DNA of 64,000 nucleotides from Stegostoma tigrinum (taxonomy: Eukaryota): NCBI RefSeq assembly GCF_030684315.1, contig NC_081386.1:17803914-17867913 (forward strand), written 5' to 3'. The notes beneath the pieces were generated by a model. That model saw only the letters and a list, made by a program, of their open reading frames with translations. It was not told where the DNA came from and searched no databases. Shown piece after piece: positions 2,000 to 42,200 of this stretch. The stretch's first letter is position 1. Each line of letters begins with the position of its first letter. A program made the translations under genes and the position numbers.

Positions 2000-3665
2000 A
2001 TAATAAAATGTGAGGCTGGATGAACACAGCAGGCCAAGCAGCATCTCAGGAGCACAAAAGCTGACGTTTCGGGCCTAGACCCTTCATCAGAGAGGGGGAT
2101 GGGGGGAGGGAACTGGAATAAATAGGGAGAGAGGGGGAGGCGGACCGAAGATGGAGAGTAAAGAAGATAGGTGGAGAGAGTGTAGGTGGGGAGGTAGGGA
2201 GGGGATAGGTCAGTCCAGGGAAGACAGACAGGTCAAGGAGGTGGGAGGAGGTTAGTAGGTAGCGGGGGGTGCGGCTTGGGGTGGGAGGAAGGGATGGGTG
2301 AGAGGAAGAACCGGTTAGGGAGGCAGAGACAGGTTGGACTGGTTTTGGGATGCAGTGGGTGGGGGGGAAGAGCTGGGCTGGTTGTGTGGTGCAGTGGGGG
2401 GTGGGGACGAACTGGGCTGGTTGAGGGATGCAGTAGGGGAAGGGGAGATTTTGAAACTGGTGAAGTCCACATTGACACCATATGGCTGCAGGGTTCCCAG
2501 GCGGAATATGAGTTGCTGTTCCTGCAACCTTCGGGTGGCATCATTGTGGCAGTGCAGGAGGCCCATGATGGACATGTCATCAAGAGAATGGGAGGGGGAG
2601 TGGAAATGGTTTGCGACTGGGAGGTGCAGTTGTTTTTTGCGAACTGAGCGGAGGTGTTCTGCAAAGCGGTCCCCAAGCCTCCGCTTGGTTTCCCCAATGT
2701 AGAGGAAGCCGCACCGGGTACACTGGATGCAGTATACCACATTGGCAGATGTGCAGGTGAACCTCTGCTTGATGTGGAATGTCATCTTGGGGCCTGGGAT
2801 GGGGGTGAGGGAGGAGGTGTGGCGACAAGTGTAGCATTTCCTGCGGTTGCAGGGGAAGGTGCCGGGTGTGGTGGGGTTGGAGGGCAGTGTGGAGCGAACA
2901 AGGGAGTCGCGGAGAGAGTGGTCTCTCCGGAAAGCAGACAGGGGAGGGGATGGAAAAATGTCTTGGGTGGTGGGGTCGGATTGTAAATGGCGGAAGTGTC
3001 GGAGGATAATGCGTTGTATCCGGAGGTTGGTGGGGTGGTGTGTGAGAACGAGGGGGATCCTCTTGGGGCGGTTGTGGCGGGGGCGGGGTGTGAGGGATGT
3101 GTCGCGGGAAATGCGGGAGACGCGGTCAAGGGCGTTCTCGATCACCGTGGGGGGAAAGTTGGGGTCCTTAAAGAACTTGGACATCTGGGATGTGCGGGAG
3201 TGGAATGTCTTGTCGTGGGAGCAGATGCGGCGGAGGCAGAGGAATTGGGAATAGGGGATGGAATTTTTGCAGGAGGGTGGGTGGGAGGAGGTGTATTCTA
3301 GGTAGCTGTGGGAGTCGGTGGGCTTGAAATGGACATCAGTTACAAGCTGGTTGCCTGAGATGGAGACTGAGAGGTCCAGGAAGGTGAGGGATGTGCTGGA
3401 GATGGCCCAGGTGAACTGAAGGTTGGGGTGGAAGGTGTTGGTGAAGTGGATGAACTGTTCGAGCTCCTCTGGGGAGCAAGAGGCGGTGCCGATACAGTCA
3501 TCAATGTACCGGAGGAAGAGGTGGGGTTTGGGGCCTGTGTAGGTGTGGAAGAGGGACTGTTCCACGTAACCTACAAAGAGGCAGGCATAGCTGGGGCCCA
3601 TGCGGGTGCCCATGGCCACCCCCTTAGTCTGTAGGAAGTGGGAGGAGTCAAAAGAGAAGTTGTTG
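2000..3665 (-). mobile_element. Young 5'-truncated Penelope-like retroelement (RT C-terminal half, GIY-YIG endonuclease, 3' tail)
   Basis: Uninterrupted 434-aa ORF 2315-3619 with GVAMGTRMGPSYA, FLRYIDD, LTFLDL, HFKPTDSHSYL and VVYCIQCTRCGFLYIGETKRRLGDRFAEH; GC- and CpG-rich relative to flanks. Confidence 0.92.
2061..2090 (-). ncRNA. Minimal type I hammerhead ribozyme core in the Penelope 3' tail
   Basis: CUGAUGA-A-GGGU(CUAG)GCCC-GAAA-CG-UC: both conserved core boxes, stem II, palindromic ACGU in place of stem III, GUC cleavage triplet. Confidence 0.75.
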
Positions 3666-4209
3666 TATTATTTTATGTATTATGTTGTTCCATTATTTTG
3701 TGTTTGCTGCTACCCAGGAACACCTTCACTAATTCTATCTCGTTGTACAATATCAGTTCTAGTACAGCCTAATCTCTGGTTGACTCCAGAATGTCAATGT
3801 TCTGAGAACCTATCCCAAAAACATTCTAAGAATGCCTCATTTACGCTGTCTTTGTCCATTAGATTTTTCCAATCTATATGCAGATTAATTCCTCACCTCC
3901 TTCCATGATTATCTCCATATGTTTCTGTTAAGTTCCCACTATTTCTTCCTTTCTACTGCATTCTACAGAACCCGTATACCCCTCCCATGAGAGACTTCTT
4001 GCCTTTATTATTTCTCAACCCTACCTGAGCTGCTTCTACATCCTGGTTGTCTGAACTTAGGTCATCCACTTCTAATGTGCTAATACTAATATTAATTAAC
4101 GCTTTCCCTAGACTCCTGTACTTAGTAAATGCCATATACCTCTCAACGTTAATGTCAGAATCTCTGTAATCCTGCAGCCATCTGTGTGATGGCTTTCAGG
4201 TCATACTTA

Positions 4210-5069: not shown

Positions 5070-8000
5070 ATAAAAGGAGTGGTCATTGGCATATAGAGTC
5101 TGGTCCACGATTCTTTGTGATCATGGCTGATCCACTATCTTAATGACATATTCTGACTCACCCTCCATACTGTTCAAAACCTTTAGCGTCTACCAGTCTA
5201 TTAATTTTTAAAACATATTCGGTAACGTGGGCTTTACTGCCTTCTTTGGTCGAGAATTTCGTAGCATCACCATCCATTGACTGAAGAAATTTCTCCTCAA
5301 CTTTATCTGAATTGGCCTACCACACAATATGAGGCAATTATTTTCTTGCTGGAATCACTGCCCCCCCATCCCCCCTACCCCGTTCCTAGTATCCTGTTCC
5401 TGCTCCATCCCCATACTCTTTGATCCATACAGCCCCAACAACCTTATTTAATCCTTTCTTGAAAATATTCAATATTTTGACCTCAACCACTTTGTGCAGA
5501 CAACTCCTCAGGTTCACCACATTCTGGGTGAACAAATTTCTCCTCATTTCAGTGCTCTCACTACCAAGGTCAATAAATCATTTGCCTTCTTCACCACTTC
5601 TGCATCAGCATGCTTACTTTATGGAATTAGTGTACAAGGACACCCAGGTCTTGTTGTACCTTTTCTTTTCTCAATCTGTCACTGTTCAGAAAATAATCTA
5701 TCTTCCTGTTTTTGCTACCATAACCTTGCATTTATCCACATCATATTCCATCTGCCATGCATTTGCCCAATCACTCAACTTGTCCAACTCACATTGAAGC
5801 ATCACTTCAGCCTCCTCACAGTTCATCCTCCCACCCATCTGCAAATTTGGAAATAATACATCACTAATATAAACTGTGCATTGTTTGTGCCACACTAGAC
5901 ACTGCCTGCAACTTGGGAAAAGATCTGTTTATTACTACTCCTTGTTTCCTGTCTGCCAAACTATTTTCTAGCTACATTAGCACACTACACCCAATCCCAT
6001 GCACTTTAATTTTATATGCTAATCTCTCATGTAGAACGTTACTGAAAGCCTTCTGAAAGTCCAAGTAAACCACATCCACTGGCTTCTTTCGGGAAAAGGG
6101 ATGACTGACAAGTGGGAGGCTTTCAAAAGTGTGATAACAAGAGTTCAGAGCCAATATGTTACTGTCAGAGTAAAAGCTAAGGCTGGTAAGAGTAGGAAAT
6201 AATGAATGAATAAAGATATTGAGGCTCTAGTCAAGAATAAGAAAGAATCATAGATACAGATAACTGGGATCAATGAATCTCTGTTAGTGTATAAAGTGTG
6301 TAGGAAATCATGAGGGCAAAAGGGGACGTGAGATAGCGTTGGCAGATAAGGTTAACGATACGCCAAAGAAATTCTACAAGTGCATTAAGAGCAAAAGAAC
6401 AATTAGAGAGAGAATAAGGCCCCTTAAAGATCCATGAGGTTGGCTATGTGTTGAACCTCAGGAGATGGGACAGATACTGAATATTTTGCATCAGTTTTTA
6501 CTGTGGAGAAAAAATTGGAGGTTAGAGAACTCAGGGAAATATTGATATTTTGAAAACTGTTCACATTACAAAAGAGGAAGAGCTGGAGGCCTTAGAAAAC
6601 GAAGATGGATAAATGTCCAGGACCTGATCAAGTGTATGCCAGAACATTGTGGGAAGTTAGGGAAGAAATTGCGGTTCTCATAGCAGAAATTCTTGTATCG
6701 TCTAAAACCTTGGGTGAGATGCCAGAGGACTGTTTCCATGCTGTACGATTCGATGATTGGGGGGTGGCTAATGTTGTACTCTCGTTTAAGAAAGGCTGTA
6801 AGCAGAAGCCTGGGAACTATATATCTGTGATGGGTAAGTTGTTGGAGGTGATCCTGAAAGATAGAATTTACATGCATTTATAGAGGCAAGGACTGATTAG
6901 GGATAATCAGCCTGGCTTTGTGTGAGGGCAACTGTGTCTTACAAACTTAATTGAGTTTTTTGAAGAAGTAACCAAAAAGATTGTTAAGGGAAAGCAATAG
7001 ACATTGTTTACATGGACTTTAGTAAAGCCTTTGATGAAGTCCCACATGGTAGATTAATTAGTAAAGTTAGATCACATGGAATTCAGGGTGAGATTGCCAA
7101 TTGGATACAAAATTGGTTTAATGGTAGGACAAAGAGAGTGATGATGGAGGTTTATATTTCAGACTGGACTTCTGTGACCAGTGTCGTTCCACAGGGATCA
7201 GTACTGGATCCACTTTTGTTTGTCATGTATATAAATAATTTAGGTGAGACTGTTGGAGTCATGGTTAATGAATTTGCAGATGACACCAAAATTGGTGGTA
7301 TAGTGGGCAGTATAGAAGATTATCTAAGATTGCAAAGAGATCTTGATCAATTGGGTCAATGGGCTGAGGACCGGCAGATACAGCTGAATTTGGATGAATG
7401 TGAGGTATTGTATTTTGGTAAAATAAACAGGGCAAGACTTATAGAATTCATTGTAGGGGTCTAGGTAGTGTTGTAGAACAGAAAACCTAGAAGGTTTGGA
7501 TACATCATTTTTTGAAATTTACGTCACAGGGCGATTAAGAATGTGTTAAGCACACTTGCTTTCATTCCTCAGACCTTTGAATATAGGAGTTGGGACATTA
7601 TGATGACATTATACAGGATGTTAGTGAAGCCTCTTTAGAGGTTAATGAAATCATGAGAGACACAGAGAAGATGAATTGCAAAGGTATTGCCCCTAGGTTG
7701 GAGGAGGTCAAAACTAGGGGGTATATTTTTAAGGTGAGAGGAGAAAGATTTAAAAAGGACATGAGGGACAATTTTTTTTTACACATAGAATGGTTTGTGT
7801 GTGGAATGAACTGCCAGAGGAAGTAGTGGATGCAGGTACAGTTAGAACATTTAAAAGACATTTGGATAAGTATACAAATAGGAAAGGTTTGGAGGAATGC
7901 AGGCCAAACACAGGCAAGTGGGAACATGGTTGGCGGGAACTGGTTGGACTGAAAGGTCAGTTTCTGGGCTGAATGACTCTAACTCTACTAGTTTCATCCT

Positions 8001-8100: not shown

Positions 8101-8264
8101 ATTTTATCATTTCTGTTCATATTTGCCCTTGAAGCAAGCTACAAACACATAATGCGGGACATATTGTACTGCATCAACATTAAATTTATAGATTCTACAT
8201 GTCAAACACATGGTTTGAGGTTTTTCAGTATTAAAAACTGTTTTTCAAGGCAAGGAGGTATTGA

Positions 8265-8412
8265 TTAGGAGACAGTAACGACTGCAGATGCTGGAAGTTA
8301 CAGTCAATAAATGTGGAGGTGGAAAAGCACAGCAGATCAGACGGCATCCAAGGAGCAAGGAAGTCAACATTTTGGGCCGAAACCCTTCATCAGGACAAAG
8401 CAACCTTTCCAT
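8265..8412 (-). mobile_element. Short Penelope-tail insertion with decayed hammerhead core, 15-bp TSD
   Basis: gcaaggaggtattga at 8250-8264 and 8413-8427; CCTGATGAAGGGTTTCGGCCCAAAATGTTG on - at about 8365-8394. Confidence 0.7.
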
Positions 8413-8585
8413 GCAAGGAGGTATTGAGGAGAGATTGATCATGTATACTGTTACTCCATTAGATAGTGTTTTATTAATTATCATTATACTTGATGTTCAT
8501 AGTCAAGCAAGCTAGTGAGGAATGCAATACATGCGATTGTGGAGGCTATTTTCCTGCTTACATTCATAGTCAGTACATCAGACCA

Positions 8586-8934: not shown

Positions 8935-11900
8935 GAACATAGAACATAGAACAGTACAGGCCCTTCAGCACGTGAAGTTGTGCCAATCTATTATCCTGCT
9001 AAGATCAATCTATCCTGCACACCCTACAGTTTACTTTCCTCCATGTGCCTATCCAAGAGTCATTTAAATGTCTCTAAAGTATCTGGCTCCACTACCATTG
9101 CAGAAGCACATTCCACGTGCCCACCACTCTCTATGTGAAGAACCTATCTCTGACATCTCCCCTTCACCTTCCTCCCCCTCGTAATTATGTCGCTGTCAAT
9201 GTCCTGTTGCAACCTACAACAGCCCTCCATGCTCTCCACAACTCCACCAGCCTTCATGTCTTCAGCAAACTTGCTAACCAACCCTTCCACTTCCTCATCC
9301 AAGTCATTTGTAAAGATCACAAAGAGCAGAGGTCCCAGAACAGATCCCTGTGGAACACCACTGGTCACTGACATTCAAGCTGAATACTTTCCATCTACTA
9401 CTACCCTCTGTCTTCTGGACAGCCAGTTTTATATCCAGACAGCCAAATTTCTATGAATCCCATGCCTCCTAACTTTGAATGAGCCTACCACGTAGAACCT
9501 TATCAAATGCCTTGCTAAAATCCATATACACCACATCCACTGCTCTACCTTCATCGATGTGTTTTGTTACATCCACAAAGAATTCAGTAAGACTTGTGAG
9601 GCATGACCTGCCCCCCCTCAAAGCCATACTGACTATTTCTAATCAAACTGTACTTTTCCAAATAATCATAACTACTATTAGGATCCTCTCCAATAATTTG
9701 CCCACCACAGAATAAGATTGACCGGTCTGTAATTTCCAGGATTACCCTTATTCCCTTTCTTGAACAAGGGGATGACATTTGCCACCCTCCAATGTTCTGA
9801 TACTACTCCTGTGGACAGCAAGGATGCAAAGATCATTGCCAAAGGGGCAGCAATCTCTTCCCTTGATTCCCGTAGTATAGCTCGTCTGGCCCAGGGGACT
9901 TATCAATCCTAATGTTTTTCATAATTTCTAGCACATCCTCCTTCCTTACGTCAACCTGTTCAAGCATAGCTTCCTGTTTCATGCTGTCCTCACAAATGTC
10001 AAAGTCCCTTGCACTCATGAATACTGAAGCAAAGTATTCATTAAGGACCTCCCTTACCACCTCTGACCCCACGCACAAGTTGCCTCCACTATCCCTGATT
10101 GGTCCTACCCTCACTCTGGCCAACATCCTGTTCCTTACATAAGCATAGAATGCCTTTGGGTTTTCCCTGATCCTACCTGCCAAGGTTTTCTCATACCCGC
10201 TTCTAGCTCTCCTAAGTCCATTCTTCAGTTCTTCCCTGGCTACCCTGTAGACCTCTAGAGCGCTGTCCAATCCTTGCTTCCTCAACCCTAAGTAAGCTTC
10301 CTTCTTCCTCCTGACTAGATGTTCCACATGTCTTGTCATCCGAGGTTTCTTCACTGTACCATCCTTTCCTTGCCTTGCCTCAGTGGGACAAACCTATCCA
10401 GTATCTGTAGCAACTGCTCCCTAAACAACCTCCACATTTCTGTTGTGCATTTCCCTGAGAACGTCTGATCCCCATTGGTACTCCGTAGTTCTTGCTTAAT
10501 AGCATAGTATTTTCCCCTCCCCAATTAAATACTTTCCCAAAATGTCTGCTCCATGATTATAGCGAATGTCAGTAAGTTGTGATCACTATCGCCGAAATGC
10601 TCTCCCACAAAGAGACCTTGGCCTGGTTCATTGCCAAGCACCAAATCCAACCTGGCTTCCCCTCTAGTCAGCCGAGCTACATATTGAGTCAGAAATCCTT
10701 CCTGGACATACCTGACAAAATTTGCTCCATCCAAACTATCTGCACTTAGAAGGTTCCAGTCTATATTACGGAAGCTGAAGTCACTCATGACAACCACCCT
10801 ATTACTTCTGCACTTTTCCAAAATCTGTCTCCCAATCTATTCCTCAGTGTTTCTGTTGCTATTGGGGTCTATAGCAAACTCCCAGTAAAGTGACTGCTCC
10901 TTTCCTGTTTCTGACTTCCACCCATACTGATCGAGTGGACAAATCTACCTCCACAACCTCCCTTTTTCCAGTTGTGATACCATCCCTGATTTACAATGCC
11001 ACTCCCCCACCTCTTTTACCTCCCTCCCTATTTCTTTTGGAACATCTATACCCTGGAACATCCACCAGCCATTCCTGCTTTTGTGTTATCCAAGTCTCTG
11101 TAATGGCCACAACATCATAGTTCCAAGTACTGATCCATGCACTAAGTTCATCGGCCTTATTCCTGACACTTCTTGCATTGAGGTACACACACCTCAACCC
11201 ATCGCACTGACTACCACTTTGCCCTATCAACCGCTCATCCTTCCTCACAGATTCTCTGCTTGCTTTATCTGCCTGTACACCGGCTACCCCATCCTTTGAT
11301 ATGTAGCTCCGGTTCCCATCCCCTGGCAAACTAGTTTAAACCCTCCCGAAGAGCTCAAGCAAACCTCCCACCCAGGATATTGGTGCCCCTCCAGTTCAGA
11401 TGCAACCAGTCCTTACTGTACAAGTCCCATCTTCCCCCACAAACCTCAAGCCCTCCCTCCTAAACCAGCTCTATAGCCACATGTTCAGCTGCACTCGCGC
11501 TCTGTTTCTGGCCTTACTAGCCTGTGGCACCGGCAGTAATCCTGAGATTACTACTCTGCTTGTCCTGGCTTTCAGCCTCCATCCTAACTCCCTATATTCA
11601 CTTATCAGGTCCTCAACCCGTTTTCTATCTATGTCATTGGTACCCATGTGTACCATGACTTCTGACACCTGGGAGGCAACATAGCATCCAGGAGTCTCGC
11701 TCGGTGCCACTGAATCTCCTGTCTGTTCCCCTAACCCTTGAATCTCCTATCACTATTGCTCTCCTATTCTTCCCCCCCTTCCCTTCTAAGCCATAGAGGA
11801 AGACTCAGTGCCAGAGACTTGGCTGCTATGGCTTTCCCCTGGTCGGTTGTACTCCCCCAACAGTATCCAAAGCGGTATACTTATTATTGAAGGGAACATC

Positions 11901-16666: not shown

Positions 16667-17847
16667 CTAATGAAAAAATGGACTGTCAAATCCACTGTCC
16701 TGCTGAATAATGTCTGTATTAGAGATCAAATGTGATGGATACTTCTGATGGGAAAGTTTGTTCATCTTTGCTGTCCAGCCATTCAGTGCTAGTTCCTGTT
16801 CAAGCTCAGTGCACTCAATACATTTAGGAGGCTTTGTCTTTGTCCTCAATGGATCCCGGTTAATAGCAGAAATAGTGCTTTCTGCAACATTTTCCATTTG
16901 TTTGGCGTCTATTCTTGACACAAATGGAATTGTTTTACTTGAAAAGCAAGCATGTTCTCCATCAGAAAGAGAGCTAATTTCAGAAGTTACAGAGGAAATG
17001 GAAGGTGACATTTGTGGAGCACCATTTGTAGCTGACCGTGGCTTGGAGGTGCCACTAGACTCGTTGCACATTATAGGCGTGCTACAATCTTCTACATGGC
17101 ATACTTTTCCTCCAGCTTGCCTAAAATTAAAAGTGTCCATTTGACAAGGCCTGATGGCTTCAAGATGGGTAACAAAATCACCATCTCTTTCAGGAGTTTG
17201 TGCATTATTTGGTGCCCTGGTCATAGGTTTGGAACAGACATATACTTCTGAATTATGTATATAAGCTTTTGCAGGCAAGACACAATCCTGATTGCACGCC
17301 ATTTGCAGAGATGTTCTGTCCTTATGACTATCAATAGAATTCAATGTCGGGGCTTTGCTGTTGCACATTTGGGAAGGGTACTTGGCTAAGTTCTGAAAAT
17401 GTGCAAGATTTGCAGTTTTGAGAAACTCAGATTTTGACATCGCATCATTCAACTGATGACCATCTTTTGTTTCATAAAACAAAGCAGTGTCTTTTTGTAA
17501 AATATCAGATGTTTCTTTAATTTTGTGAATGTTAACTTGTTTATAACTTGTAGGTAATTCTTCATCTGAAATGCCATTCTCTGCAGTTGCACCATATAAA
17601 TTATTGTTCAAATTACGTGGCATAAATACTGTGCCTGTTGTGTGCTTTTTGAATTTCTGGACCTGGTCTTCATTGGAAGATGGTTTCTCAACATGATTTG
17701 CCCGCACATGGGTTGATCCACTGGTCTCTTGATCGTTCTCAGAAATCACTGGAGTTTGTTTTGAACTTTTCATATTTGGACAGGCTTTGGAATGGAAGCA
17801 AGCAAAACATGTACACAAAGACTCATCCATGCAAAATGACAGATCAA
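16667..17847 (-). CDS. CEP152: CEP152 terminal coding exon, disordered tail ending [10 protein letters not shown]
   Basis: Lies within ORF 16667-17866; ctgtcag acceptor in phase 1; TAG at 16667-16669. Confidence 0.9.
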
Positions 17848-20800
17848 CTGACAGAACAAAGAACAAATTTTATCAGCTACAGTAGAAGCAAGTGAAGTTA
17901 GAACAGAAAGCTAAGTGCCTGAAATATAAATATCAAATTGTCAACTTTCTAACAACAGTTCTTTATTTTTGTTTTAATATTGCCACATTCTTATGCAGAC
18001 TTAAAAAATCAGAGCCAACTGTCTTCGGCACCTAATTAAAGAGCAGATTAAACAAATCATAAAAAGTACTAACCAGTGGGATATGTAAACAAAAACACAT
18101 GCCTTCCTTCAAAGTTAATGGGATAAAGCTTCTATAAATGATGGAAATGAGCCAAAAGTTCAACAAAAATATGATGAATCAGTATTGATACTTAATTTCT
18201 AGCACAAAACAGGCATCAGTCATTCGCCAAGAACATGAACAGAAATTGCTGGAAAAGCTCAGCAGGTCTGGCAGCATCTGTGAAGGAAAAAAATCAGAGT
18301 TAATGTTTTGGGTCTGGTGACCCTTCCTCAAAATTGATACCAGCTAGGAAAAACGTTGGTTTGTATGCAGAAAATAGGGAGGGGGATGGGATAGGGAGTA
18401 AATGACAGGATAAAGGATAGAGCCCAAAGAGACAAGAGCAATTGGGCAAAGGAGTTGATAACAATCTGGCTAGGAGGGTGAATAGCTGTTAATGGGCACT
18501 GTCAGTAGCTAACAATGGATAGTGTGCAAAGGCAGGCTGTGATAATAAAGCCTGGTATGTGGAATAGGGGAGCTAAGTCATGGGAGAGTGTAGGCCCTAA
18601 AATTATTGAACTCAATATGGAGTCTGGAGGGCTGTAGGGTCCACAAGCAGAAAATGAGGTGTCGTTCTTTGAGCTTGCGCTGAGCTTTGCTTGAACACTG
18701 CAGCAAGCCCGAGACAGAGATGTTGGCCAGGGAACAGTGTGGTATGTTAAAGTGGCAGGCAACTGGAAGCTCAAGGTTTTTTGTTTGCAAGCAGGATGTA
18801 GACGTTCTGCAAAGTGGTCACCTTGTCCATGCTTCGTTTCCCCACATTGTGAGCAGTGAACGTAGTAGACTAGATCTGGGAAGTGCAGATGAAGTATTGC
18901 TTCACCTGGAAGGTATGTTTGGGCCCTTGGATACTGGGAATGTAGGGACGTAAATGGGCAGGTGTTACACCTTTGCTGGTTGCAGGTGAAGATACCATGG
19001 GGCTGTGAAAGGGTGTTGGGAGTGAAGGAAGAGCAGACCAGAGTGTCCCAGAGGGAATGGTCTCTGTGGAAGGCAGAAAAGGAAGGGAGGGGAATAGAAA
19101 TGACATGATGATCTTCTGGATATGGATGCTGGTGGGATGGGAGGTAAGGACAAGGGGAACTCTATCACTGTTGCAGGGTGGAAGAGAAGGGGCGAGGGCA
19201 GAAGTGTGGAAGATGGGTTGGACCTGGTTGAGACATATGTCAACAATGGTGCTGGGGATTCCCTGGTTGAGGAACGAGGCAGACATTTCGGAGGCTCCCT
19301 TGTCAAAGTTGGCCTCATCTGCGCATATGCGACAGAGACGGAGGAACTGAGAGCATGGGATGGGGTGTTTACAGGAAGGAAGGTGCAAGGATATATAGTC
19401 CAGGTAGCTGCGAGAGTCACAGAGTCATCTTAGAAGCATAGAATCCCTAGAGTGTGGAAACAGGTCCTTTGGCCAACAAGTCCACACTGACCCTCAGAGG
19501 ATCCCACATAGTCTACACATCCCTGAACACAAGGCAATTTAGCATGGCCAATCCATCTAGCCTGCACATCTTTGGACTGTAGGAGGAAACCAGAGCACCC
19601 AGAGAAAACCCACACAGACACGGGGAGAATGTGCAAACTCCACACAGACAGTCAAACCTGGGTCCCTGGTGCTGTGAGGAAGCAGTGCTAACCACTGAGC
19701 CACCGTGCCATTGGTAGGTTTATAGTGGACATTAGTGGCCAGTCTATCCCCAGAAATGGAAACAGAGATTTCAAAAAAGAGAAGAGAAAAGGAGGAGTCA
19801 AAGATAGACCAGGTGAAAGTGAAGGCAGGATGGAATTTGGAAGTGAAATCGAAGAACTTGTCTGATTCCGGACAAGAGGGGAGAACAGCACAAATGATAT
19901 GATTGTTATATTGGAGAAAGTTGTGGGTGAGGGCCGGAATAGAACTAAAATAAGGAATGTTCCACGTACCCAATGAAGAGACAGGCATAACTGGGGTCCA
20001 TGTGGGTACCCATGGTCACTCCTTTGACCGGAGAAAAATGAGAGGAGTTAAAAGAAGTTGTTGAGGGCGAGGACAAGCTCAATCAAGCGGAGGAGGGTGG
20101 TGGGTAAGTATGGTTCAGGCCTCTGCCCATTTACATCGATCTTTTTAGACCAAGCTGTTGAATATTGTTTTCTAACATTGAAAAGTTATCAGTTTTCTTC
20201 TTGGTCCCTGAAAGTGCAGTTTGAGCTGACTGTTAGTACAAGTAGGTAGGGCTTAGGGCAGCTTAACTTTCTCTCTCTGATGAGAAAGTATTGCAGCATA
20301 CATGTTGATCTGAAAAACAAGTCAATTCAATTTATCCAGTCCCAACATCTTGCTTTTTCACATAGACCAACACTTCCCATTCCCTCTTTTCAGCCATGAC
20401 ATGTCACACTGGCACTACTAGTCAGCCTTTAATTTTTCAATCCACAAATGCATATTTTACTTCGTGTTATCTTAAAACAGTCAAATGTTTGTGTCATTTG
20501 CTTGATTTTTTCATGTACATTCATTCTTTGCATCAGAAGCCAATGACATTTCAAAATGGCAACCACCCACACCCACAATTCACTTTCCTACTCTGTGTAC
20601 AGGTCAACTCTAATTTTGGAGGGACTTCGAAAGGTAGAGGTGTGTGCCAACATCTGTGGTAGAAATCTTACTACTTCCAAGCACACAAAGGACAAACATG
20701 CTATACCACTGAAGTTTAACAAACATTTTTACCTCTCGAATACAGCTGACTTTTAAAATATTATGTTCTCAAATAAAATCAAAACATTAAACACAAATCA

Positions 20801-23800
20801 ACAAAAACACAATCTTAAACTAGGAACAAAAAACCCAAAATCTGAATATACATATTCCAAAATATCATACTAACCTGTCAGGGTTTCAGCTTTGTCACGC
20901 TTTCGATTTGGAAGAGGAGTTTCTAAAGCTTTGGCCATTGCAGCCAACTTGCTAGCAGCATTCATGATCCTCTTTTCAGCACTGAAAAAGTAACCATTTT
21001 AAATAAATCTCTATTGCCAGTATAATTAACATAGTTCTTAAACCAATAACATCCAAATGATCACAACCATCTGCCTCAGTGTCTGGGCTTTTCAAAGCAA
21101 GTTTGCTATTGATGAGGAGTGTAGGGATCAATAAACCTTTTTGTGTTATATGTATTAGAATCCTAAAGCATTAGTTCAATGCCAATAAATACTCCTGTTT
21201 TATAACAAGTATCCATTTTGCCTAAACTAAACTACTCTAAAAAACTCTAAGAATTTATTTTGAAATAGACCAATTAAATTGGATTAAAGTAGTACAATCT
21301 AGAAAAGTATGTGTGTACTCTTTAAACAATTGCACAAGTGAACAAGGTCAAGTTCAGCAATGTCAGTCTCTAAGTTGAAAAGTCACCTATGAGGTACAGA
21401 GAACTGAGATAATGGGAACTGCAGATGCTGGAGAATCCAAGATAACAAAGTGTGAAGCTGGATGAACACAGCAAGCCAAGCAGCATCTCAGGAGCACAAA
21501 AGCTCCTAAAAAGGTACAGAGAACTGCCCTGTGGAAAAATGGCCCCATGTATTTTGCTGCCCTCAGAAGTGCAAGTTAAAAACACAGGGAGAGAAAAGGC
21601 AAATTAAATTAAAATTACAGCTTGACCAAATGCAAAGAACTGAAATAATTATAGTACACTCAAATATGTTAGCACTTTCAGGTTATTGTTCTCCACAATC
21701 ACTGACCTCTGTCTCATTACTTTAAAATGTACATTTCCCTGGTATATATTGATCCGTAGTTAAAAATCAGTAGGAAGTCTGCATTGTTTCAGAGGTAGTA
21801 GATTCTCCAGCATCTGCAGTTCCTGAGATAACAAGGTGTAGAGCTGGATGAACACAGCAGGCCAAGTTGCATCACAGGAGCAGGAGAGCTGACCTTTCGG
21901 GCCTAGACTCTGAAATGTCAGCTCTCCTGCTCCTATGCTGCTGCTTGGCCTGCTGTGTTCATCCAGCTCTACATCTTGTTATCTCAGAAGTCTGCATCGG
22001 TTGGTCTTTGTCCTCTCGAAAAAGAAAGATACTCTATTACAGGGCTCTGGTTTCATATATACACCAAAAAATAAATAAGGATGTCAGATTTTAAAAAAGA
22101 TAAAATTCTGCCACCCAAAGCTTTGATCTTATGCACTGGAATACTATTTGATCTTTGATTTCTGACAGAGTTATGAGCATATGCATCAAAAGGGACATTT
22201 TTTCTTTCAGAAAGTATTCCTCATTGTCCCAAATGTTCATTTTACAACTTAATTATGTCATTAATACAATGGTGACCACAGTAAATAGTGCTCTTTTAGA
22301 AGCTGCAACAAAAAAAGTTTTTACCCATCATTGTTCCCACCGTCTACTAGGAGTTGGTGGAGACAAGTCAAGTAATATTTCCGCATTTTCCGTGCGGTTT
22401 GTTGACGTTCCTTCAATACCTCTGCACGAATCATTTCAGCTGCTCGCTTCTTACTTTCTTGAATATAACGCATCATGTCTCCTGCACAAATTAAGAAAAG
22501 TCCTTGAGATACAGGACCAAATGGGGAGGCGACAGACTAAATGGTATTATCACTGGACCATTAATCCAGAAAGCCTGGCAATATTCTGGGTACCTGGGTT
22601 TGAAATATGCTTGTGGTAGATGGTGAAATTTGAATTCAATAAACATCTGGAATTAAGATTCTTTGGATGACCGTCAGGAAACCAGAAAACTGCCATTCTT
22701 ACCAGTCTAGTCTACATGTGATGCCAGAACCACAGTACTATTGCTGTGGGTCTGAATGGCAAACACTGTTGGACTGCAAATAAATTTGACAACCAATGCA
22801 CACAAAAGCAAATCTCAAGGAAACAATGTAATGATGTCAGTTAAGTGATAACTGGGAGTCCTCTGCTGCTCTTTCCATAACCTGACAATCTCTAATCATT
22901 CAGTTAATATGGTCTTTTAATTCTTCTTGCCCAAATGGATGATTTCATACTTGCCTATAATACTCCATTTGCTTGATCTCTGTCCACCCATTTAACCTGT
23001 CTTTGTAACCTCATGTCCACAAGGCCTAGTCAGCAACATCAATGTCCCACAAACCAATGGGAAAATTCAACTCACCTTCTCATCTACCTTTGTATCATCA
23101 GCAATTTTAGCACCGATTCCGTCAGTCCTTAATCGAATTCATTTATAGAATATAAAATTGTTGTGGCCCAGCATTGTTCCTTGTGGCAGACCACCAATTG
23201 TCATCTTTCCAATCAGAACAAGATCGGTTTCTGCCTACCTGTTAATCAGCCAATCTTCTATGCATGCCAAAATGTCACATCCTCACACCATGGTTTTAAT
23301 TTTCTGCAATAACATTTGTTGTGGCACCTTGCCAAATGCCTTCTGGAAACTGAAGTCCAGTACCTCTATCGGTTTCTTTTTATCCACAGCACATGTTACT
23401 TCTTTTAAAGAATGCCAATAAATGGATTTAACAGGATTTTCTTTTCACAAAACCGTGTTGACTCCACATGATTACTTTTGAAGTTTTCGCAAAACGCTAA
23501 GTTTTTTTTTTAAATAATAGCTTCAATCATGACAGAAACTAACTTGCCTGTAATTTCCTGTCTTATTCCCACTTTCTAATGAAATCTTCCTCAAATCTAG
23601 GAGATTTTGGAAAATTAGAACCAATGCATCTCAAGTCCCTTCTTTTAAAGATATAGGATATAATCCACCTGGACCACTGGTCTTGTCAAATTGCAGTATA
23701 ACAATGTGCTCAGTATTCACTTCTCTGGGTGATGATAGTTTTCTGGAGTTCCTTCTTCCCTCCCTTCTGTTTCCTGAGTTAGAGCTATTTTTGAGATGTT

Positions 23801-26800
23801 AATTCTACCCTATAAAGACTGATGCAAAATACTTGTTCAATTCATCAGACATCTTGATTTTCCAGTGCTAAATTGCCCAGGCTCACTTTCTATACAATTA
23901 ATGCCCACTTTTTGTTATTTTTTTCTGAAGAAAAGTTAATAGAAACTCTTAAATAAAAACCAAAAGAACTGCAGATGCTGTAAATCAGGAACAAAAACAA
24001 AGTTGCTGTAAAAGCTCAGCAGGTCCAGCAGCACCTGTGAAGAAAAAGTCAGAATTAACGTTACCCGGACCCAAAACGTTAACTCGAGTTTTTCTTCACA
24101 GATACTGCCAGACCTGCTGAGCTTTTATGGCAACTTTGTTTTTGTAATAGAAACTACCACTGTTTTTTATATTTCTACTTAGATTTTCTCTCATACTTTT
24201 AATTTTTCTCTTATTGTCATTCTTTGCTGTTTTGTACATTCTGTCCAATCTTGAGATGTCACCTGTCGTTGTGTAATTATATGCTTTTTCTTCAAGCCTG
24301 ATACTATCTTTAACTTTTTTGTTAATACTTTCCTGGGAATTCTTTTTTCCTCAAATGAACATAGTTTTTAAACATTTGAAACATCCCCATTAATGTCTGC
24401 CACTGCATTGCTCTTGACCTCTCTCAATAATTTTCCAGTTCACTTTAGCTAACTCTTTTTGTTCTTACTGCCCTAAAACATGAATCTTAAACCCGCTGGT
24501 CTCCCCCTCCAAAATGTAATATTCAATCATATAATAATGACTTTAATGAGCCCTTATCAATCCCCAAGTGATTGGTGACAAATGATACACAATCTAAAAG
24601 TTGGGACGTAAAGCTGGCATTTTTACTGACTAATCATTATACATTTAAGGATTATACCATTGCAGGTGCGTGAATATATATCTGAAAATACCCTTCTCTG
24701 AATTCCAATCAAAAATCGACAAAATACATCAGGGAGCCATTAACTGATTAATTTTAAAAGGTACAATGAGGAATTTGTTGTATGGTATGCACTTACGCCA
24801 GCATAATACATTGTAAGTATTCGCCAAATAAAAGTTTTCAAAGTTAAAGAGAAGTTCGTTGTGCCAAAAACTGATCAAGATCAATACTTGCATTGAAAAC
24901 AGCTATAAGAAATGCCAGTAAAACTTGTTATTTCACAACAGCTATTTAAAATTATAAACCAAAGATAGATGTAATTCAATTTCAATTCAGTTAAGTACAA
25001 TTAGTCAACTATTCTATTACTGTAACATTCATCTATCAGGATTGGTAGACAAGTGGATAGATTGATATTCTTGTATTTTGTAATTCGTGCATTGTACGGA
25101 AGATATATACAAAAACAGACTGATGGTAATCACCTCTGATTTTGTCCACAGCTCTCAAATACTGACACCGAATTTCTTCTAATCCTTTTGCAGAGATCAA
25201 CTTGCATGAATTCTCAGGGTTACAATTTTCCTGTAAACTAAAAAGGGGAAAAATATTGGAAAGGTAGCTGTAAGCACATATTACGTTACTTGAAATAGCA
25301 AAATCTAAAAACAATTGATCATGTTCAGATAATTATGAGGGCTTCCAGTGTTGATATTTATTTTAGTCTTTATCTAATCTACAAAAACTAACTACTTTTG
25401 ATGCTCAATATTTACTTGCCCAGGGTAAACTACTGAATGAATGATGCTTTCTGTTCCCTCATCTTTCACATTCTGTTCAATGATCAGATCTGTGATTTGG
25501 CCTGCTGATCAGTTGATGTATATGGAGGCTGCACGTCGCAGCACCATCAAAGGAGTAGTCCAGAAATTTTGCATTATCTGAATGACCTGTGGGGTTCCCA
25601 ACATATTGCTTACGTCAATATCACCTATTGCACAACTTTGTGGGAACAGAATCGCTCAGATTTTAGAACCAAAAGTAAAGCATAGCATTGGCTAGCATAA
25701 AATATATTTGGACAATACTGCTTTATGCATATAGGAGTTAACAATGGTGTAATTTGCATGCGTACAATCTTACATCAACTTTAATATTAATAATTTGGTT
25801 TCTGTATGCATGAACTTTCATCTACATATTTAGGCTAGGTAGTGTGCATTTGTGAAATGTGGACGGGCATTCTGTTACTTGAGTAGTTGGTTCATTAGAA
25901 TAAGTTCAGCCACCATATCCTCATCTTGGAAACAGAAAGAGATCTGTAACTTAAAATGGTGTTCTACTTATTTCTGCAATGCACCAAAGATTTAAGTGCA
26001 AGAAAAATAGATTCAATGTGCTGATATCACGTTAAGAGGGAATATGCTAATGACATGTGACTAGGACATAAAAGAAGTGACCAGCACCATTTCATAGTTC
26101 AGCTTCTGGTGTGCAGCAAGAAAGAGTGCAGCTCCTGCAACAAGTGTTACTGAACCCATACAACTAATCTGTCTGTCTAGAAAGGCACTCCTGCAACAGA
26201 ATTCAAATAAACAGAAAGTAATGTTGAGACCATCACACTTTTTATCCTCTTACTCATTTTTTTGAAACAAAGTTGAAAATTGAACTTTGAACAGTAGTTT
26301 GTTTTTAAAACAGCAAAAAAAAAGGATGTTAGGTTTTGGGAGTGGCCTAGAAAGATACTGCAGATTAATTACTACTCTAAGAACACTACAGATGATTCAG
26401 CACAGAGACGTGCTATGCTCAGGACTGGTAGCTAGTTGGACATCAAATTGGTCAATCAATTGAAAACTGGCACTAGCCAGCCAATCACAGAAGATGGTGA
26501 AAAAGAAAAGCAAAGCCACGAGTGAACTAGTAGATAAGGTTTTGGGCAGGAGGCAGTTTTCTTCTGGAAGCTTCCAGACTGTTGTTGTTTTTGGATTTTG
26601 CATTCTCTCTCTCTCTAGTTATTCTCCAGTTACTGATTAGTTGAAAGTTCTGAGAAAAGAAACCCAATCAGCAATAAGTAGAAATCTCCAGAGGTCTGTG
26701 GAAACTGTCTGCATTGACTGGTGACTTCAGCATTCTTGAAAGTTATCAAACAAGCAAAGTACAATTTCTTTTTTTTAAGAATTTATCCTTTAACTGTGTC

Positions 26801-32800: not shown

Positions 32801-35800
32801 CGGTACACTTGGACAACGAAGGCCGTCACTTTAGCTAGGACAGGGTAACCATAAGTAGCCCAAATCAAACATAGACACACATGGGAATTCCTAGAGGCAT
32901 GGTTCTCCACCTGTAATATAAAATCAACAAACATATAGAACTGGACCCAATATACAAACCGGAAATGACATTACTCACCATAATGGACCAGACAAAAAAA
33001 TTCCAAGCAGAGGAGAATAACTTCATCAGAGGCTCCCCTGATGTCACCTAGCATGGTGATGAAGCGTCTGAATGAGAACAAAACAGTATAGCGACATTTT
33101 TTTTTTGGAATGTGCAAGCGAATCATTTACATCTGTAGCTCCTTTAAAATTTTCCTAGCAGTCGTGGACACAGTAACATGAAGGAGTTGACTCATGTATG
33201 AGCTGTACCTCAAGCTTCTAACTTATCTTGTACATAACAGAATAAAAAAAAGGTTAATTTTGGGGGCACTTCCTTGAACATTTCAATCGACTTTGCAAGA
33301 AGTAATTTAAAAAAAAGGTGGAATTTTCACAAAGTACATACACTAAAAAGGAAAATTTGATATAATTGAAAAACTAAGAATGGACTCTGAGCTAAATATG
33401 CACATACATTTCACAACAATGCCATCCACACAGGACACATCAATATATTTTTCTCAGGTATAAAGTGAAGATCCATCGTATGTGTTTATGTCAAAAAGCC
33501 ATTCCACCAGGCTATCCTAATACAGCTAGAACCTAAAAAGTGAACTGCCATTACCTCTTTCTGAGTTTCAAGGATCTCTTCAACCATTTCAGTGCAAACT
33601 CTCTGGAGATGGTCCTTTACTTCAACAAACTGGTCATGCGTTGATTTGGCAGTGTTAGAATATTCCTCTGCTCTGAGGCATGCAGGTTTAGACTTTCCAA
33701 AGTGTTTTGAGATATCACGCAAAAAACGTTCAATTTCAGCAACAAGTTCAGCTTCATATTGCTGTCTTTCAAAATTGATCTGCTCCTCTCTACGAGTTGA
33801 CCATTCTTTTTGCTTTTCTGAGAGCCGCAGATTGAATTCTGCCTCCTTTTGTGCAATCAATTCATTCTTCTGCCGGGTAAAGTCTTCTTTAGCTTCTTTA
33901 AGGACTTTACTGAGTTTATTTCGATGCTCTGCTAGGAAGGCTTGATAATCCTGTTCATTTAGTTCATGAATTCTATTAATCTCTACTTGTTTTGCTTTGT
34001 TCCATTGAGTTCGAGCTTTTGCTAATTCAGCTTTAACAACTGCTGCTGCCTCTTCTTTCTCAAGTTTTAATTTGCGCTCTAGAACAACGGTCCTTTCCTG
34101 CAGCTCTGAAGTTTTAACACTGGACTCCATTTTCTCAATTTCCTTCAAAGTATGTTTCTTCCATTTTTCATCATTTGCTTTCACTGCTGTAGCTACCTGT
34201 AGTTTAAAAAGTACTGATCAATTTACTAAATCTATTTAAAATACAATAAATATTTTCTTGGATCAAATTGATCTGATTAATACCAACAGCATTTTTCAAA
34301 TTGAAAGTTATCTCCCTCATCCAAATCACCTGTCTTCACATTTAAAAATATATCCCCAAGATCAAGCACACTTTGTAAAACACATTTTCTACTGAGAAGT
34401 TGCAAGGTGTTCTTTCATAGTCAAATTAGTGTACTAATTAAAGTTAACTCATGTCAGGAGTACAAATGCTGGCATGCTATGAACTCTACAGTACAATGCA
34501 AAAACACATAAAAGAATGAATGTTTCATTGTAGATTTGGCAGAGCAGTGTGCACCAATTATGCCAACCTAACAGTCAAGGAACTATTGCTAGTTATATCA
34601 GTCAATCATGAAGTACCATTAGTGGTTGCTTAATTTTCCGTGAATCAGCTTTAGAATAGTGGCTTTATTACAGATAATAACTAGTTACTAAGAGTCATAT
34701 TTTATACAAAATGGCTAACGCTACAACATTTACCTGTTCTGCCACATATTGTTCATATTTTGCCTCCCATTTCTTCTCTTCAATTTGTAAATTGGCTCTG
34801 TATTCAGGCAGGTTAGTCAATTCTTCTAGCCAACGACAACGTGCATTTGCTAATGCTGTTTCAACCTAAAAGACGAGGAGATGATACTTCACAACAAATT
34901 ACTGTCAGAATTAACCAAAAAAACCAAAATTAAAGCATGCATAAAGTGGATGCATATCTTAAATAAAGATACTAATTACTGTTCTTCGTAGCACAATTAC
35001 TCTTGCTTCCTTTAAGGACTTAACCTTTGTGGTGACGTTTTTCCAGTGGAAGAAGAATGCAAGTTGTAAGCGAAAGAGCAAGATCAAATTATATCCTAAT
35101 GGAAATCACCTTTTTATATCCACTAGCTGATTTTTGGTGATATATTAATCAGAGCTTGTGTGGCACAGTAATGAATGTGAAGTTATAATTAATTCACTTG
35201 CATCTTTAACAATATGGAGGCTGGTTAGTTCAGTTGGCAGGGCTGCAGGTTTGCAATGCAGAGTAATACAAACAGCGCGGGTTCATTTCTTGCGCCAGCA
35301 GAGGATACCAACCTCAACCTCTCCCCTCACGACCCTCAGGTTAAACTACTACCAGGCAACACTCACTCACTAAAAGAGCACCTTTATAGTCTGACAGAAC
35401 TGTGGTGATTTTTTCTTTTTAACAGTAGATAGGACTTGTGAATGACATGCATTTCAAGGGGTCAAAAGCAGTTGAAAACTCGAAAGAAAGCAAGGACATA
35501 GGCATTTTTTGAAAGTTAAGCTGGGGGTAATATTTGATCTGCACAATGATCCTAGAATACTGGGCGGTTTTGACAGAGCAGAGTGCATAGTCTAAAATGG
35601 CTTGGAATGATCCAGTTGGAGCCAATGATGCACGGTGATGCTGTATGCCAAACAAACAAACAAACAAACAAACACACAGTCTCACACCAACTCTTCAGAA
35701 AACTGGAACTGTTCGGAGGGCAAGAGAGAGCAAAAACGAGAGATAGAGTGCAAAAAAGAAATGTAGACAGAAATATTTCTTTGGACAAGAACATCAAAAA

Positions 35801-39220: not shown

Positions 39221-42200
39221 CCAGCAAACAAGAGTGACAGTATATAGTGTGGTGGGGTCGCCTGTAGTGCAACATGAACGCAAGATCCTGGTTAAGGCCA
39301 TCCTCGTGGGTACCAAACTTGACTATCAGTCTCTTCTCGCAATTCTGTGTTGCTGTATACCCCGAATCCACCTTTGAGGATGTTTACCCAAAGGTCCAAG
39401 GCCAAATGTCTTTGACTGCTGAGGGGGTCCCTGCTAGGAAAGAACATCTCTGTCTGGCAATTGTGGTGCAGTATCCATTCATCCATTATCATAGCATCTG
39501 CATGGTTTCGCCATATACTGTGACTTGGGGCATCCTTGGCTGCAGCGTATGAGACAGACAACATTGGCCGAGACATGATATTTACACGCAGATGGTGCCT
39601 GGTGTCCCCACGTGTGATGGTAGTATTCATGTCTTGCAGATATTGCCATGACAGGGTTGTATGATATTCTGGCCAATGCTGTGCTGAAAGCTAGGTAGTT
39701 TGCCACAAAACAATGGTCTGTTTAAGGTTTGGCAGTAGTTTGAAGGTGAGAAGTAGAGGTGTAGGTTAGATTTTGACAAACTGCTCATTGTCATTGGTGG
39801 GTGGGTGGCTGAGAAGAAAAAGTGGCGTAATTCCTCCACTCCCAAGAAGCACTGATGTATCGATTGTATCCCGTGTCTGTCATCAACAGCCATCTTAGAA
39901 TTGATGTGATTGTGTTGAACAAACCTATGACCCTTTGAACTTTTGCTTAAAAATTCAGTGTCTGATGCCACCTTTCTCACGGACATATGAAGGAGGAGCA
40001 AAACTCTGAAAGCTGTCTCTTCAAATAAATCTTTTGGGCTATAACCTGGTGTTGTGTGATTGTTTTCCTTGTCTAACCCAGTCCAACAGTGCACCTCCAC
40101 ATCTATTTTTTACGGCAGACATAATCCATTTGAGGATTGACAACTGATATTGTAGAAAAGGAATCAGGAGGAGATGTAGCAGTGGTTGGATTTTAAGTTC
40201 CACACTCAATGCCATGCACTGCCATATGCACATTCTCAACCTCTCTCATCAGCATCACTGTATGCTATCCCAGAGGTGTCCTGCCATCCAGTTCTATTTC
40301 ATTCTTTGGATTTGTTCAACATTTTAACAAAAACAAAAACCTTTTCCCTTCCTTTCAGATATTAAGGAATACAAGCTGCAACAACTCCAAGATATCCATG
40401 CCCCTTTGGAATTTTCCTTCCCTTCCCTCTGGCTCCATTCCTTCTCCTAACACCACCCTGCCAGTTATTTACTATACCTCCTATTTGTTCTCTGAAATGT
40501 TCTTTACTCAGCAAAAGGGCACAGTTTTATTCATCAACTGCAGTGAATTTTGGACATGACATCAAACTCTTGACAAGAGCCCTCTCCCTGTCCCAGAGAC
40601 CTTTTCACTCACCTCCAACACTCTCCCCCCACTGGACCTCTTTCTTCTTGCCAAAATCCACAAACAGGACTACTGCAGGACAGACCCACTGTTTCTGCTT
40701 GTCCTGCCTCATAACTTGTTTTTTCCTATCTGGTTTTGAATTTTTTTCTTTCCACGTCTAGTCCCTTCATGCTTACACCTGCAATTTTTCGGATTCATCA
40801 TATCGATTTTAAAATTTCCAGTTTACAGACTCCAGCCAACTCTTCTTCACCCTTCTACATGTCTGTTCCCCATCAGGATAGACTTGGGGCTCTCCATTTC
40901 CTTCTGAAAAAAGGTGGCCTGTACTGTCCTCATCCACCACAACACACCTTTGGCTTGTTGAGCTGGTCTTCACTTTGAACAATATCTCCTTTAATTCCTT
41001 GCATTTTCTGCAGAAGGCCCAAGACATGTTCACTTTATTCCTCAACCTAAATTCCATGCTACCATGACTAACAGGGCCCTTAGCCATGTCCAACCTATTA
41101 CCTGCACTTGTACCGTCACTCCTTCCTTTCTCTCCCAGAACAATAGGTTTCCAGCAGGATGACTCTGCTAGACATATTTTCCTCTCTTATCTAGTCAGCA
41201 TTCTGCAGAGACTGTTCCCACTGGGAAACGCTGGTCCACTCCTCAAGCACTCTCAATACTTTCTCATACATTCCCAACAGCTCCTCACCACTATGTTCCC
41301 ATGCAATCAGAGAAGGTGCAATACTTGCCAGTTTACTTCCTCCTTTCTCAAAGGCCTCAGATACAACTTCCAGGCAAAGCAGCAATTTATCCACACTTCA
41401 TTCAATTCAGTCTACTGCATTCACTGCGATAGGGTTTGGGTTAGGTCTGCTTTACACAGGGGAGACTAAATGTTGAATGGGTGATCGCTTTCCGGAACAT
41501 CTACATCTGTCTGCAAAAATGACCCCAAGCTTCCAGTTGCTTGCCACTTCAATAACCACTGTGTCCCCATGCTGAAATTTCTGTTTCAGGCATGGCATAA
41601 TGTTCCAGCAAATCTAATGCAACCTGGAGGAACAACACTCATCTTCCACTTGGGACCTTGAAAACGTCAGGATGTTAAAAATGGAGTTTAACAATCTTAC
41701 AGCTTGCTGACCCCCTTCCTTGTCTATTACCTACCCCATGTCCTGTCATGAAATGTACAGTCAATCTATTTACAGCTACTCATTGTTGCCATCATTATCT
41801 TCCCATCTAGCTTCTTTTCTGCCCTGGCGTACTATCAACAATCCTTTTATCTGCCTATCCATTTTTGTCTCTGGGGACTCTCTCCATCTATCTGCGTACT
41901 CCTTTCCCCCACCATCAGCTTAAATATTACTTTTCCTAGCAGCTTCAAGTTCTGAAGAAGGATCACAGGACTTGAAATGTTAATGATTTTCTCTCCACAA
42001 ATGCTGCCAGACCATTGAGCATTTCCAACAATTCTGAAGGGTCCCAACCCAAAACATCGACGTTCTTGTTCCTCTGATGCTGCCTAACCAGTGTTTCTCC
42101 AGCTCCCCGCTCTGTTGACTCCAACATTTTGTGTTTATTTCAGGATTTTCAACATGCTCAGTATGCTGCTTTTGTCATACCTCTCTAAATTGATTTCATC

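Follow-up and report, generated by a model that had tools for sequence, protein, structure and literature searches.

Do minimal hammerhead ribozymes cut their RNA in the living animal, and can a genome keep a record of the cut? The question is raised by a 98-bp insertion in the 64,000-nucleotide stretch of Stegostoma tigrinum DNA analysed here (the window), the 5' end of which falls on the predicted cleavage site of the hammerhead carried by a longer Penelope-like copy. Penelope-like hammerheads have been called of unclear function (PMC8557442), and minimal hammerheads are weak in vitro, with in vivo evidence absent according to PMC4209133. Our main reading, to which we give a probability of roughly 55%, is that the 98-bp copy arose by run-off copying of an RNA cut by the element's own minimal hammerhead. 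One insertion copy cannot prove ribozyme activity in an animal, and a single locus is only a pointer to a test of whether minimal hammerheads cut in vivo. The features of the locus are as follows.

21407 to 21504, minus strand: 98-bp insertion corresponding to the post-cut arm of a Penelope-like end repeat; it runs from 21504, where the hammerhead is predicted to cut, to 21406/21407, the main 3' end of the family; absent in the relative, present in both window-species samples.
21392 to 21406, plus strand: left copy of the target-site duplication, 15 bp exact; base 21406 also fits the element end, so 14 bp plus 1 shared base.
21512 to 21526, plus strand: right copy of the target-site duplication, 15 bp exact, matching 21392-21406.
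21505 to 21511, plus strand: 7-nt junction spacer CCTAAAA between the element 5' end and the exact duplication; its first 4 bases repeat target 21386-21389.
21378 to 21391, plus strand: target flank echoing the cDNA end and the spacer, with AAAAG at 21378-21382 in register with 21498-21502, and CCTA.

The reality of the insertion was examined with contigs from four public runs mapped on 21150-21790; runs X1 and X2 belong to one study and one species, that of the window, and X7 and X14 are related-species runs. One X7 contig joins 21391 to 21512 with zero letters between, skipping 120 bases, with 13+2 bases of homology; X14 does not bridge the site, so that the empty site is supported by one of the two related-species runs. 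The flanks of the related species differ from the window at 12/242 and 19/275 bases, plus 7 gaps. In both window-species samples single-copy contigs enter the element from either side, and among the contigs mapped on 21150-21790 an empty joint at the locus is listed in neither sample. The 120 added bases are the 98 of the element, the 7 of the spacer and 15 of duplication. Because the related species carries the empty site, the insertion is real, and 21407-21504 is a true Penelope-like retro-insertion. The minus strand of the long copy reads, as originally predicted, CTGATGA-A-GGGTCTAGGCCC-GAAA-CGTC followed by AGCTTTTGTGCTCC, with the predicted cut between 2063 and 2062. The short copy begins on the minus strand with AGCTTTTGTGCTCC, identical to the post-cut start of the long copy, contains zero hammerhead-core bases and matches the long copy at 59/63 bases over their common part; the prediction that it starts at the cut without any base of the core is thus confirmed. 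At the locus we therefore have an insertion, a 15-bp duplication, a 3' end at the main site of the family and a 5' end directly after GUC.

The duplication had been described as a clean 21-22 bp, with the element directly against it. That an insertion flanked by a duplication lies here holds, but the exact duplication is 15 bp, and the next 6-7 bases beyond it match partially, CCTATG on the left versus CCTAAAA on the right. The relative carries the left-hand version (CCTATG) of this flank, and the spacer CCTAAAA is therefore the derived part. As a plain reading a 21-22 bp duplication was rejected, since three independent changes in 7 bp have P = 9e-4 at 3% divergence and 6e-3 at 6%; given that improbability, we read the spacer as made at insertion and infer junction repair as its origin, though one complex later mutation may also have produced it. 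The junction looks like microhomology-guided joining, with a target repeat in the spacer and AAAAG of the target in register with the cDNA end, the latter a coincidence of about 1% by chance that was noticed after the fact. The AAAAG homology itself could have set the junction, and hence the element's 5' end. In R2 elements that are cut at their own 5' end, junctions vary and are formed through microhomology (PMC3774820), which would fit the 7-nt spacer seen here. The idea that the spacer is the stub of an inverted second arm was dropped, as comparison by eye gave no match to either tail end. Elsewhere in the window, the duplication around another copy (8250 and 8413) is also 15 bp, and those of two fold-backs are 11 bp exact.

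The spacer also invites the suggestion that a longer copy lost 11 bases, the TAGG of the spacer coming from the stem II loop and the bases up to AGCT being deleted at or after insertion. The stem II loop does contain TAGG, 12-15 nt upstream of the cut, and 5/7 spacer bases match the element there. However, an identical TAGG is present in the target at the corresponding position, and an extra deletion ending exactly at the cut base would be needed, and we regard this origin as very improbable.

The parent of the short copy, as seen in the long copy, comprises the following.

2063 to 2090, minus strand: core of the long copy's minimal type I hammerhead, which is predicted to cut between 2063 and 2062.
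2000 to 2062, minus strand: the long copy's post-cut arm, which stops close to the shorter 3' site.
2318 to 3667, minus strand: 5'-truncated 450-aa open frame belonging to the parent element, with a reverse transcriptase (RT) part, a C-X4-C-XX-C linker and a GIY-YIG endonuclease.

Pfam matches GIY-YIG at residues 310-350 of this frame (E 3.4e-4, 21.3 bits, below the cut-off of 22.6) and finds no RT domain in the 450 aa, which presumably contain RT motifs. A C-terminal GIY-YIG fused to RT in one frame, the membership feature of EN+ Penelope-like elements, is thus found here with a weak Pfam match. The nearest Atlas clusters of the frame lie at 0.94-0.96, with GIY-YIG and RVT_1 labels in a minority of their members, and a solved-structure search with the frame gave 0 matches. 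Upstream of the endonuclease, CNRRKCYTC fits the CX2-5CxxC linker that marks the Neptune and Nematis clades (PMC8557442); the linker is of Neptune/Nematis type, of either clade. Two older, broken Penelope-like frames, at 18581-20052 and 41034-41556, are 30-69% identical in pieces to the young frame, and each is followed by a hammerhead-bearing end. Long stop-free frames at 33489-34217 and 16670-17869 (minus), on the same strand as the insertion, may hold host-gene exons; Pfam gave no match for either. The frames at 6988-7461 (plus) and 9836-10393 (minus) resemble what we take to be LINE reverse-transcriptase fragments.

How well is the cut base placed? The motif of the long copy has the core boxes, the extra base after 9, G10.1-C11.1 and the palindromic 15.2-16.2 of minimal type I hammerheads, as given in the feature list from metazoan Penelope-like elements (PMC4209133). 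In the window arms that keep both sides of stem I, which come from three subfamilies, the first and second pairs are kept in 8/8 arms, the third in 4/8 and the fourth in 2/8, with pair types U-A, C-G and U-G across subfamilies (covariation). In register 20/24 stem I cells are paired, versus 1-11/24 when the strands are slid; the 8 arms are related and count effectively as about three, and it was the NUH rule that fixed the register. Because the pairs are kept while their types change, the predicted cut base is well placed. In the young copy stem I consists of 2 bp and stem II of 4 bp; the stem I of the other window arms comprises 2-4 bp. The lowest-energy fold of the young copy pairs CUGAUG with CGUCAG, at -11.4 kcal/mol versus -3.6 when folded as a hammerhead (z 0.46), and this pairing persists in the predicted homodimer; in its predicted lowest-energy form, then, the young copy would be inactive. 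Rfam returned 0 matches on the window, the hammerhead core being without a match at gathering score. For the anole element, cleavage required protein and was not needed for insertion in vitro, and no RNA-seq reads started at the cut (PMC11167929).

Among the 24 of 586 loose ends listed, contigs pile up at 21406 (1309 in X1, 1328 in X2 and 92 in X7) and again at 21439-21441 (505, 1088 and 422 in X1; 265 at 21440 in X7), and the flanks beyond both sites are unrelated (agreement about 0.4). The segment between them is the following.

21406 to 21440, minus strand: the roughly 34-nt "tail" between the family's two main 3' ends, with loose-end piles at 21406 and 21439-21441.

Two main 3' ends about 34 nt apart in both species correspond to the optional 30-40 bp tail of Penelope-like elements, and they are likely to be two reverse-transcription start sites; in the anole element the tail was traced to two internal RT start sites (PMC11167929). 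The 98-bp copy ends at the distal site (21406). Opposite-strand joints 21406/21441, among the joints listed, connect two arms, one by its long 3' end and the other by its short one (in X1 58 contigs, in X2 54), a pattern as expected from tandem fold-back units.

Turning to the 5' ends, a profile search found 17 arms in the 64-kb window, 8 of them the profile seeds and with two weaker matches (E 0.084, 0.16) left out. A single arm begins at the cut. Three others have their starts at -4, -6 and -8, another three within the core, and five or six at the core or just before it; of the rest, three are long and one begins near +17. With starts spread flat over 70-140 positions, and with 6 subfamily arms or 16 arms, the probability of one exact start at the cut is 0.04-0.21, and the locus alone is therefore not beyond chance. 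Contigs leaving the reference at 21504 number 485 and 416 among the loose ends listed, and they agree at 0.55 and 0.59 with the next 30 bases of the element. By a mixture estimate, 0.38-0.57 of them go on through the element, so that about half stop somewhere within the next 30 bases. Pattern scans of metagenome contigs and viral contigs found no further copies.

Several other insertions lie in the window. The fold-back at 21785-21986, of the same subfamily as the 98-bp insertion and 280 bp from it, has head-to-head arms that reach to about -22 and -8 relative to the cut; one arm has the long tail, and the duplication is 11 bp exact. Fold-backs of another subfamily lie at 23948-24145 and 53465-53680; the arms of one end at -6 (in the AACGTT palindrome) and about -17, with an 11-bp duplication, and both arms of the other begin just upstream of the core. 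A short insertion at 8250-8427 has a whole hammerhead plus the long tail, starts about 14 nt upstream of the core and has a 15-bp exact duplication. At 41945-42123 the long-copy end of one subfamily is fused directly to the hammerhead start of an arm of another.

These numbers bear on ordinary 5' truncation, in which copying of an uncut RNA often stops in a zone bounded by the stem II base and the ACGU palindrome, or the product is trimmed to target microhomology, and the cut base is reached by chance. We consider this unlikely, if clearly the most probable of the alternatives. It would account for the three other window arms ending at -4, -6 and -8 and for the scattered ends elsewhere; it agrees with the flat-spread chance of one exact start given above, with the AAAAG microhomology beside the junction and with the 3' base of the inactive hairpin, which lies no more than 2 nt from the site. 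About half of the contigs leaving at 21504 fail to continue through the next 30 element bases, and stops are therefore dense across the whole ribozyme zone. Against these points, the junction shares no microhomology with the upstream bases of the element, and, among the joints listed, three different tandem linkers fall on the same base, where a stall zone would spread them.

Those linkers come from head-to-tail joints elsewhere in the genome. Among the 12 best-supported of 110 joints, 3 of the 8 from X1 and 2 of the 4 from X2 run from 21504 to 21406, with linkers TCA, TATCA and ATTG; the counts are thus at-least values. Their depths, among the joints listed, are 187, 125 and 61 against about 20 for single-copy sequence, or 3-9 times, depth here not being copy number. 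In sense reading the upstream unit ends at the tail site or a few bases past it, and the next unit starts exactly at AGCT. None of the three counted linkers listed starts with the G that would continue the element; a fourth X1 joint at 21504 does begin with G, may continue the element and was left out of the count. Taking the joints as independent of one another and distributed across 100 or 30 positions, the probability that 3/8 fall on a base named beforehand is 5e-5 to 2e-3. One ancestral tandem, amplified, could underlie the repeated joints at 21504. The deepest joint among those listed, 21485 to 21411 (depth 917 in X1, 380 in X2), is not at the ribozyme site; it restarts about 19 nt after the cut and may be an amplified repeat of about 80 bp. 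The joints that restart at the cut base give support for the cut-site reading beyond the locus itself.

The same joints bear on another source of a fixed 5' end, namely run-off from a transcription start, with a promoter in the end repeat starting a capped RNA at this A and the ribozyme uninvolved. The step from C to A is a common initiator, and a copied cap leaves an extra G before the element on the sense strand. The sense-strand base before the 98-bp element is indeed G, as a copied cap would give, but it is equally explained by the target's own TAGG. The joints at 21504 begin with T, T, A or G on the plus strand, and the cap-type C occurs in 0/4 of the X1 joints listed; the five or six short arms that begin at or just upstream of the core mark a better candidate start. 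The end repeat of Drosophila Penelope does contain an internal promoter (PMC2377424), and even so we hold a transcription start at this base to be improbable, with less in its favour than ordinary truncation and more than the loss of 11 bases.

We return to run-off copying of a cut RNA. The original prediction took the locus as a reverse-transcribed cleavage product and an in vivo record; the register of the cut site (the 8/8 of stem I) and the tandem joints at the cut base speak for it, but cleavage in vivo is only inferred, given the 2-bp stem I, the inactive fold and the other 5' ends 4-8 nt upstream. The sequence of events would be as follows. The hammerhead in a transcript running through the end repeat would cleave it at GUC, probably as a dimer formed through the ACGU palindrome or with help from the element's protein. 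The RT-endonuclease would then nick the target, and copying would begin inside the RNA at the fixed tail site and run off the cut end after 98-99 bases. Chance microhomology would guide the joining of the free cDNA end to the other target strand, and the 7-nt spacer would be left behind. At other loci the cDNA would instead jump to a second RNA, giving head-to-tail units that restart at the cut base. Cleavage, run-off and template jumping are thus the presumed steps of this scheme. Extended to the family, germ-line hammerhead cutting together with a fixed internal RT start might yield insertions of about 65 and 99 bp and, through template jumping at the cut end, ribozyme-less tandem micro-repeats, a generalisation that we hold tentatively and somewhat less readily than the reading of the locus.

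What kind of product would this be? Its length is defined, as had been predicted, since the parent RNA fixes the position of each end. The further description of a SINE-like, non-autonomous mini-element is not supported: the unit is collinear with the post-cut arm of the parent and lacks a ribozyme or SINE head, and we see no sign of such units giving rise to further copies. A SINE has its own RNA-derived head with an internal promoter. SINE membership was rejected on the whole unit being collinear with the post-cut arm of the parent, with no Rfam match in the window. Non-autonomous elements derived from R2 reportedly exist. We predict that the 98-bp product is a dead end and founds no new family able to spread by itself.

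Among Penelope-like elements, truncated copies that have tails, duplications and inverted arms are already known (PMC8557442, PMC3846280); in the openly readable article texts searched we found no report of genomic insertions starting at a minimal hammerhead cut. If insertions and tandem joints do start at the cut beyond chance, genomes record the cleavage directly and the cut RNA is a real template. Ribozyme activity could then be compared across subfamilies by counting, with the genome as a countable fossil read-out; and as cleavage would make short, dead copies, the ribozyme may limit rather than help full-length spread.

In sum, the 98-bp copy is a real insertion of an ordinary class with a suggestive 5' end, and its place among known systems is as follows. 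The hammerhead is like the minimal type I hammerheads of metazoans (PMC4209133) in its core boxes, the extra base after 9, G10.1-C11.1 and the palindromic 15.2-16.2 without loop 3, and differs in its stems, stem I being only 2 bp long in the young copy (2-4 bp across the remaining window arms) and stem II 4 bp. R2 with its HDV-like ribozyme (PMC3774820) is alike in that the cut would set the cDNA end and chance microhomology makes the junction; it differs in ribozyme and element class, and here there is no fixed rDNA target, and the RT start is internal, so that the product is about 100 bp and not full length. Non-LTR retrozymes (bioRxiv 10.64898/2026.07.22.740005) are likewise small, non-coding, derived from Penelope end repeats and perhaps able to form tandem units, but they keep a hammerhead per unit, whereas the 98-bp unit and the tandem joints are without one. 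Retrozyme membership was accordingly rejected, there being no core in the 98-bp unit and the joints leaving 3-5 letters between units. In the anole element no RNA ends were seen at the cut and cleavage is dispensable in vitro (PMC11167929), unlike our reading of the 98-bp copy. The parent linker is of Neptune/Nematis type and not of the Poseidon layout. A further likeness is to 5'-truncated EN+ Penelope-like insertions with a 30-40 bp tail (PMC11167929, PMC8557442, PMC3846280), which share the 3' ends about 34 nt apart, the target duplication, a hammerhead adjoining the tail, fold-back copies nearby and a parent with C-terminal GIY-YIG; what sets this copy apart from them is that its 5' end is the predicted ribozyme cut.
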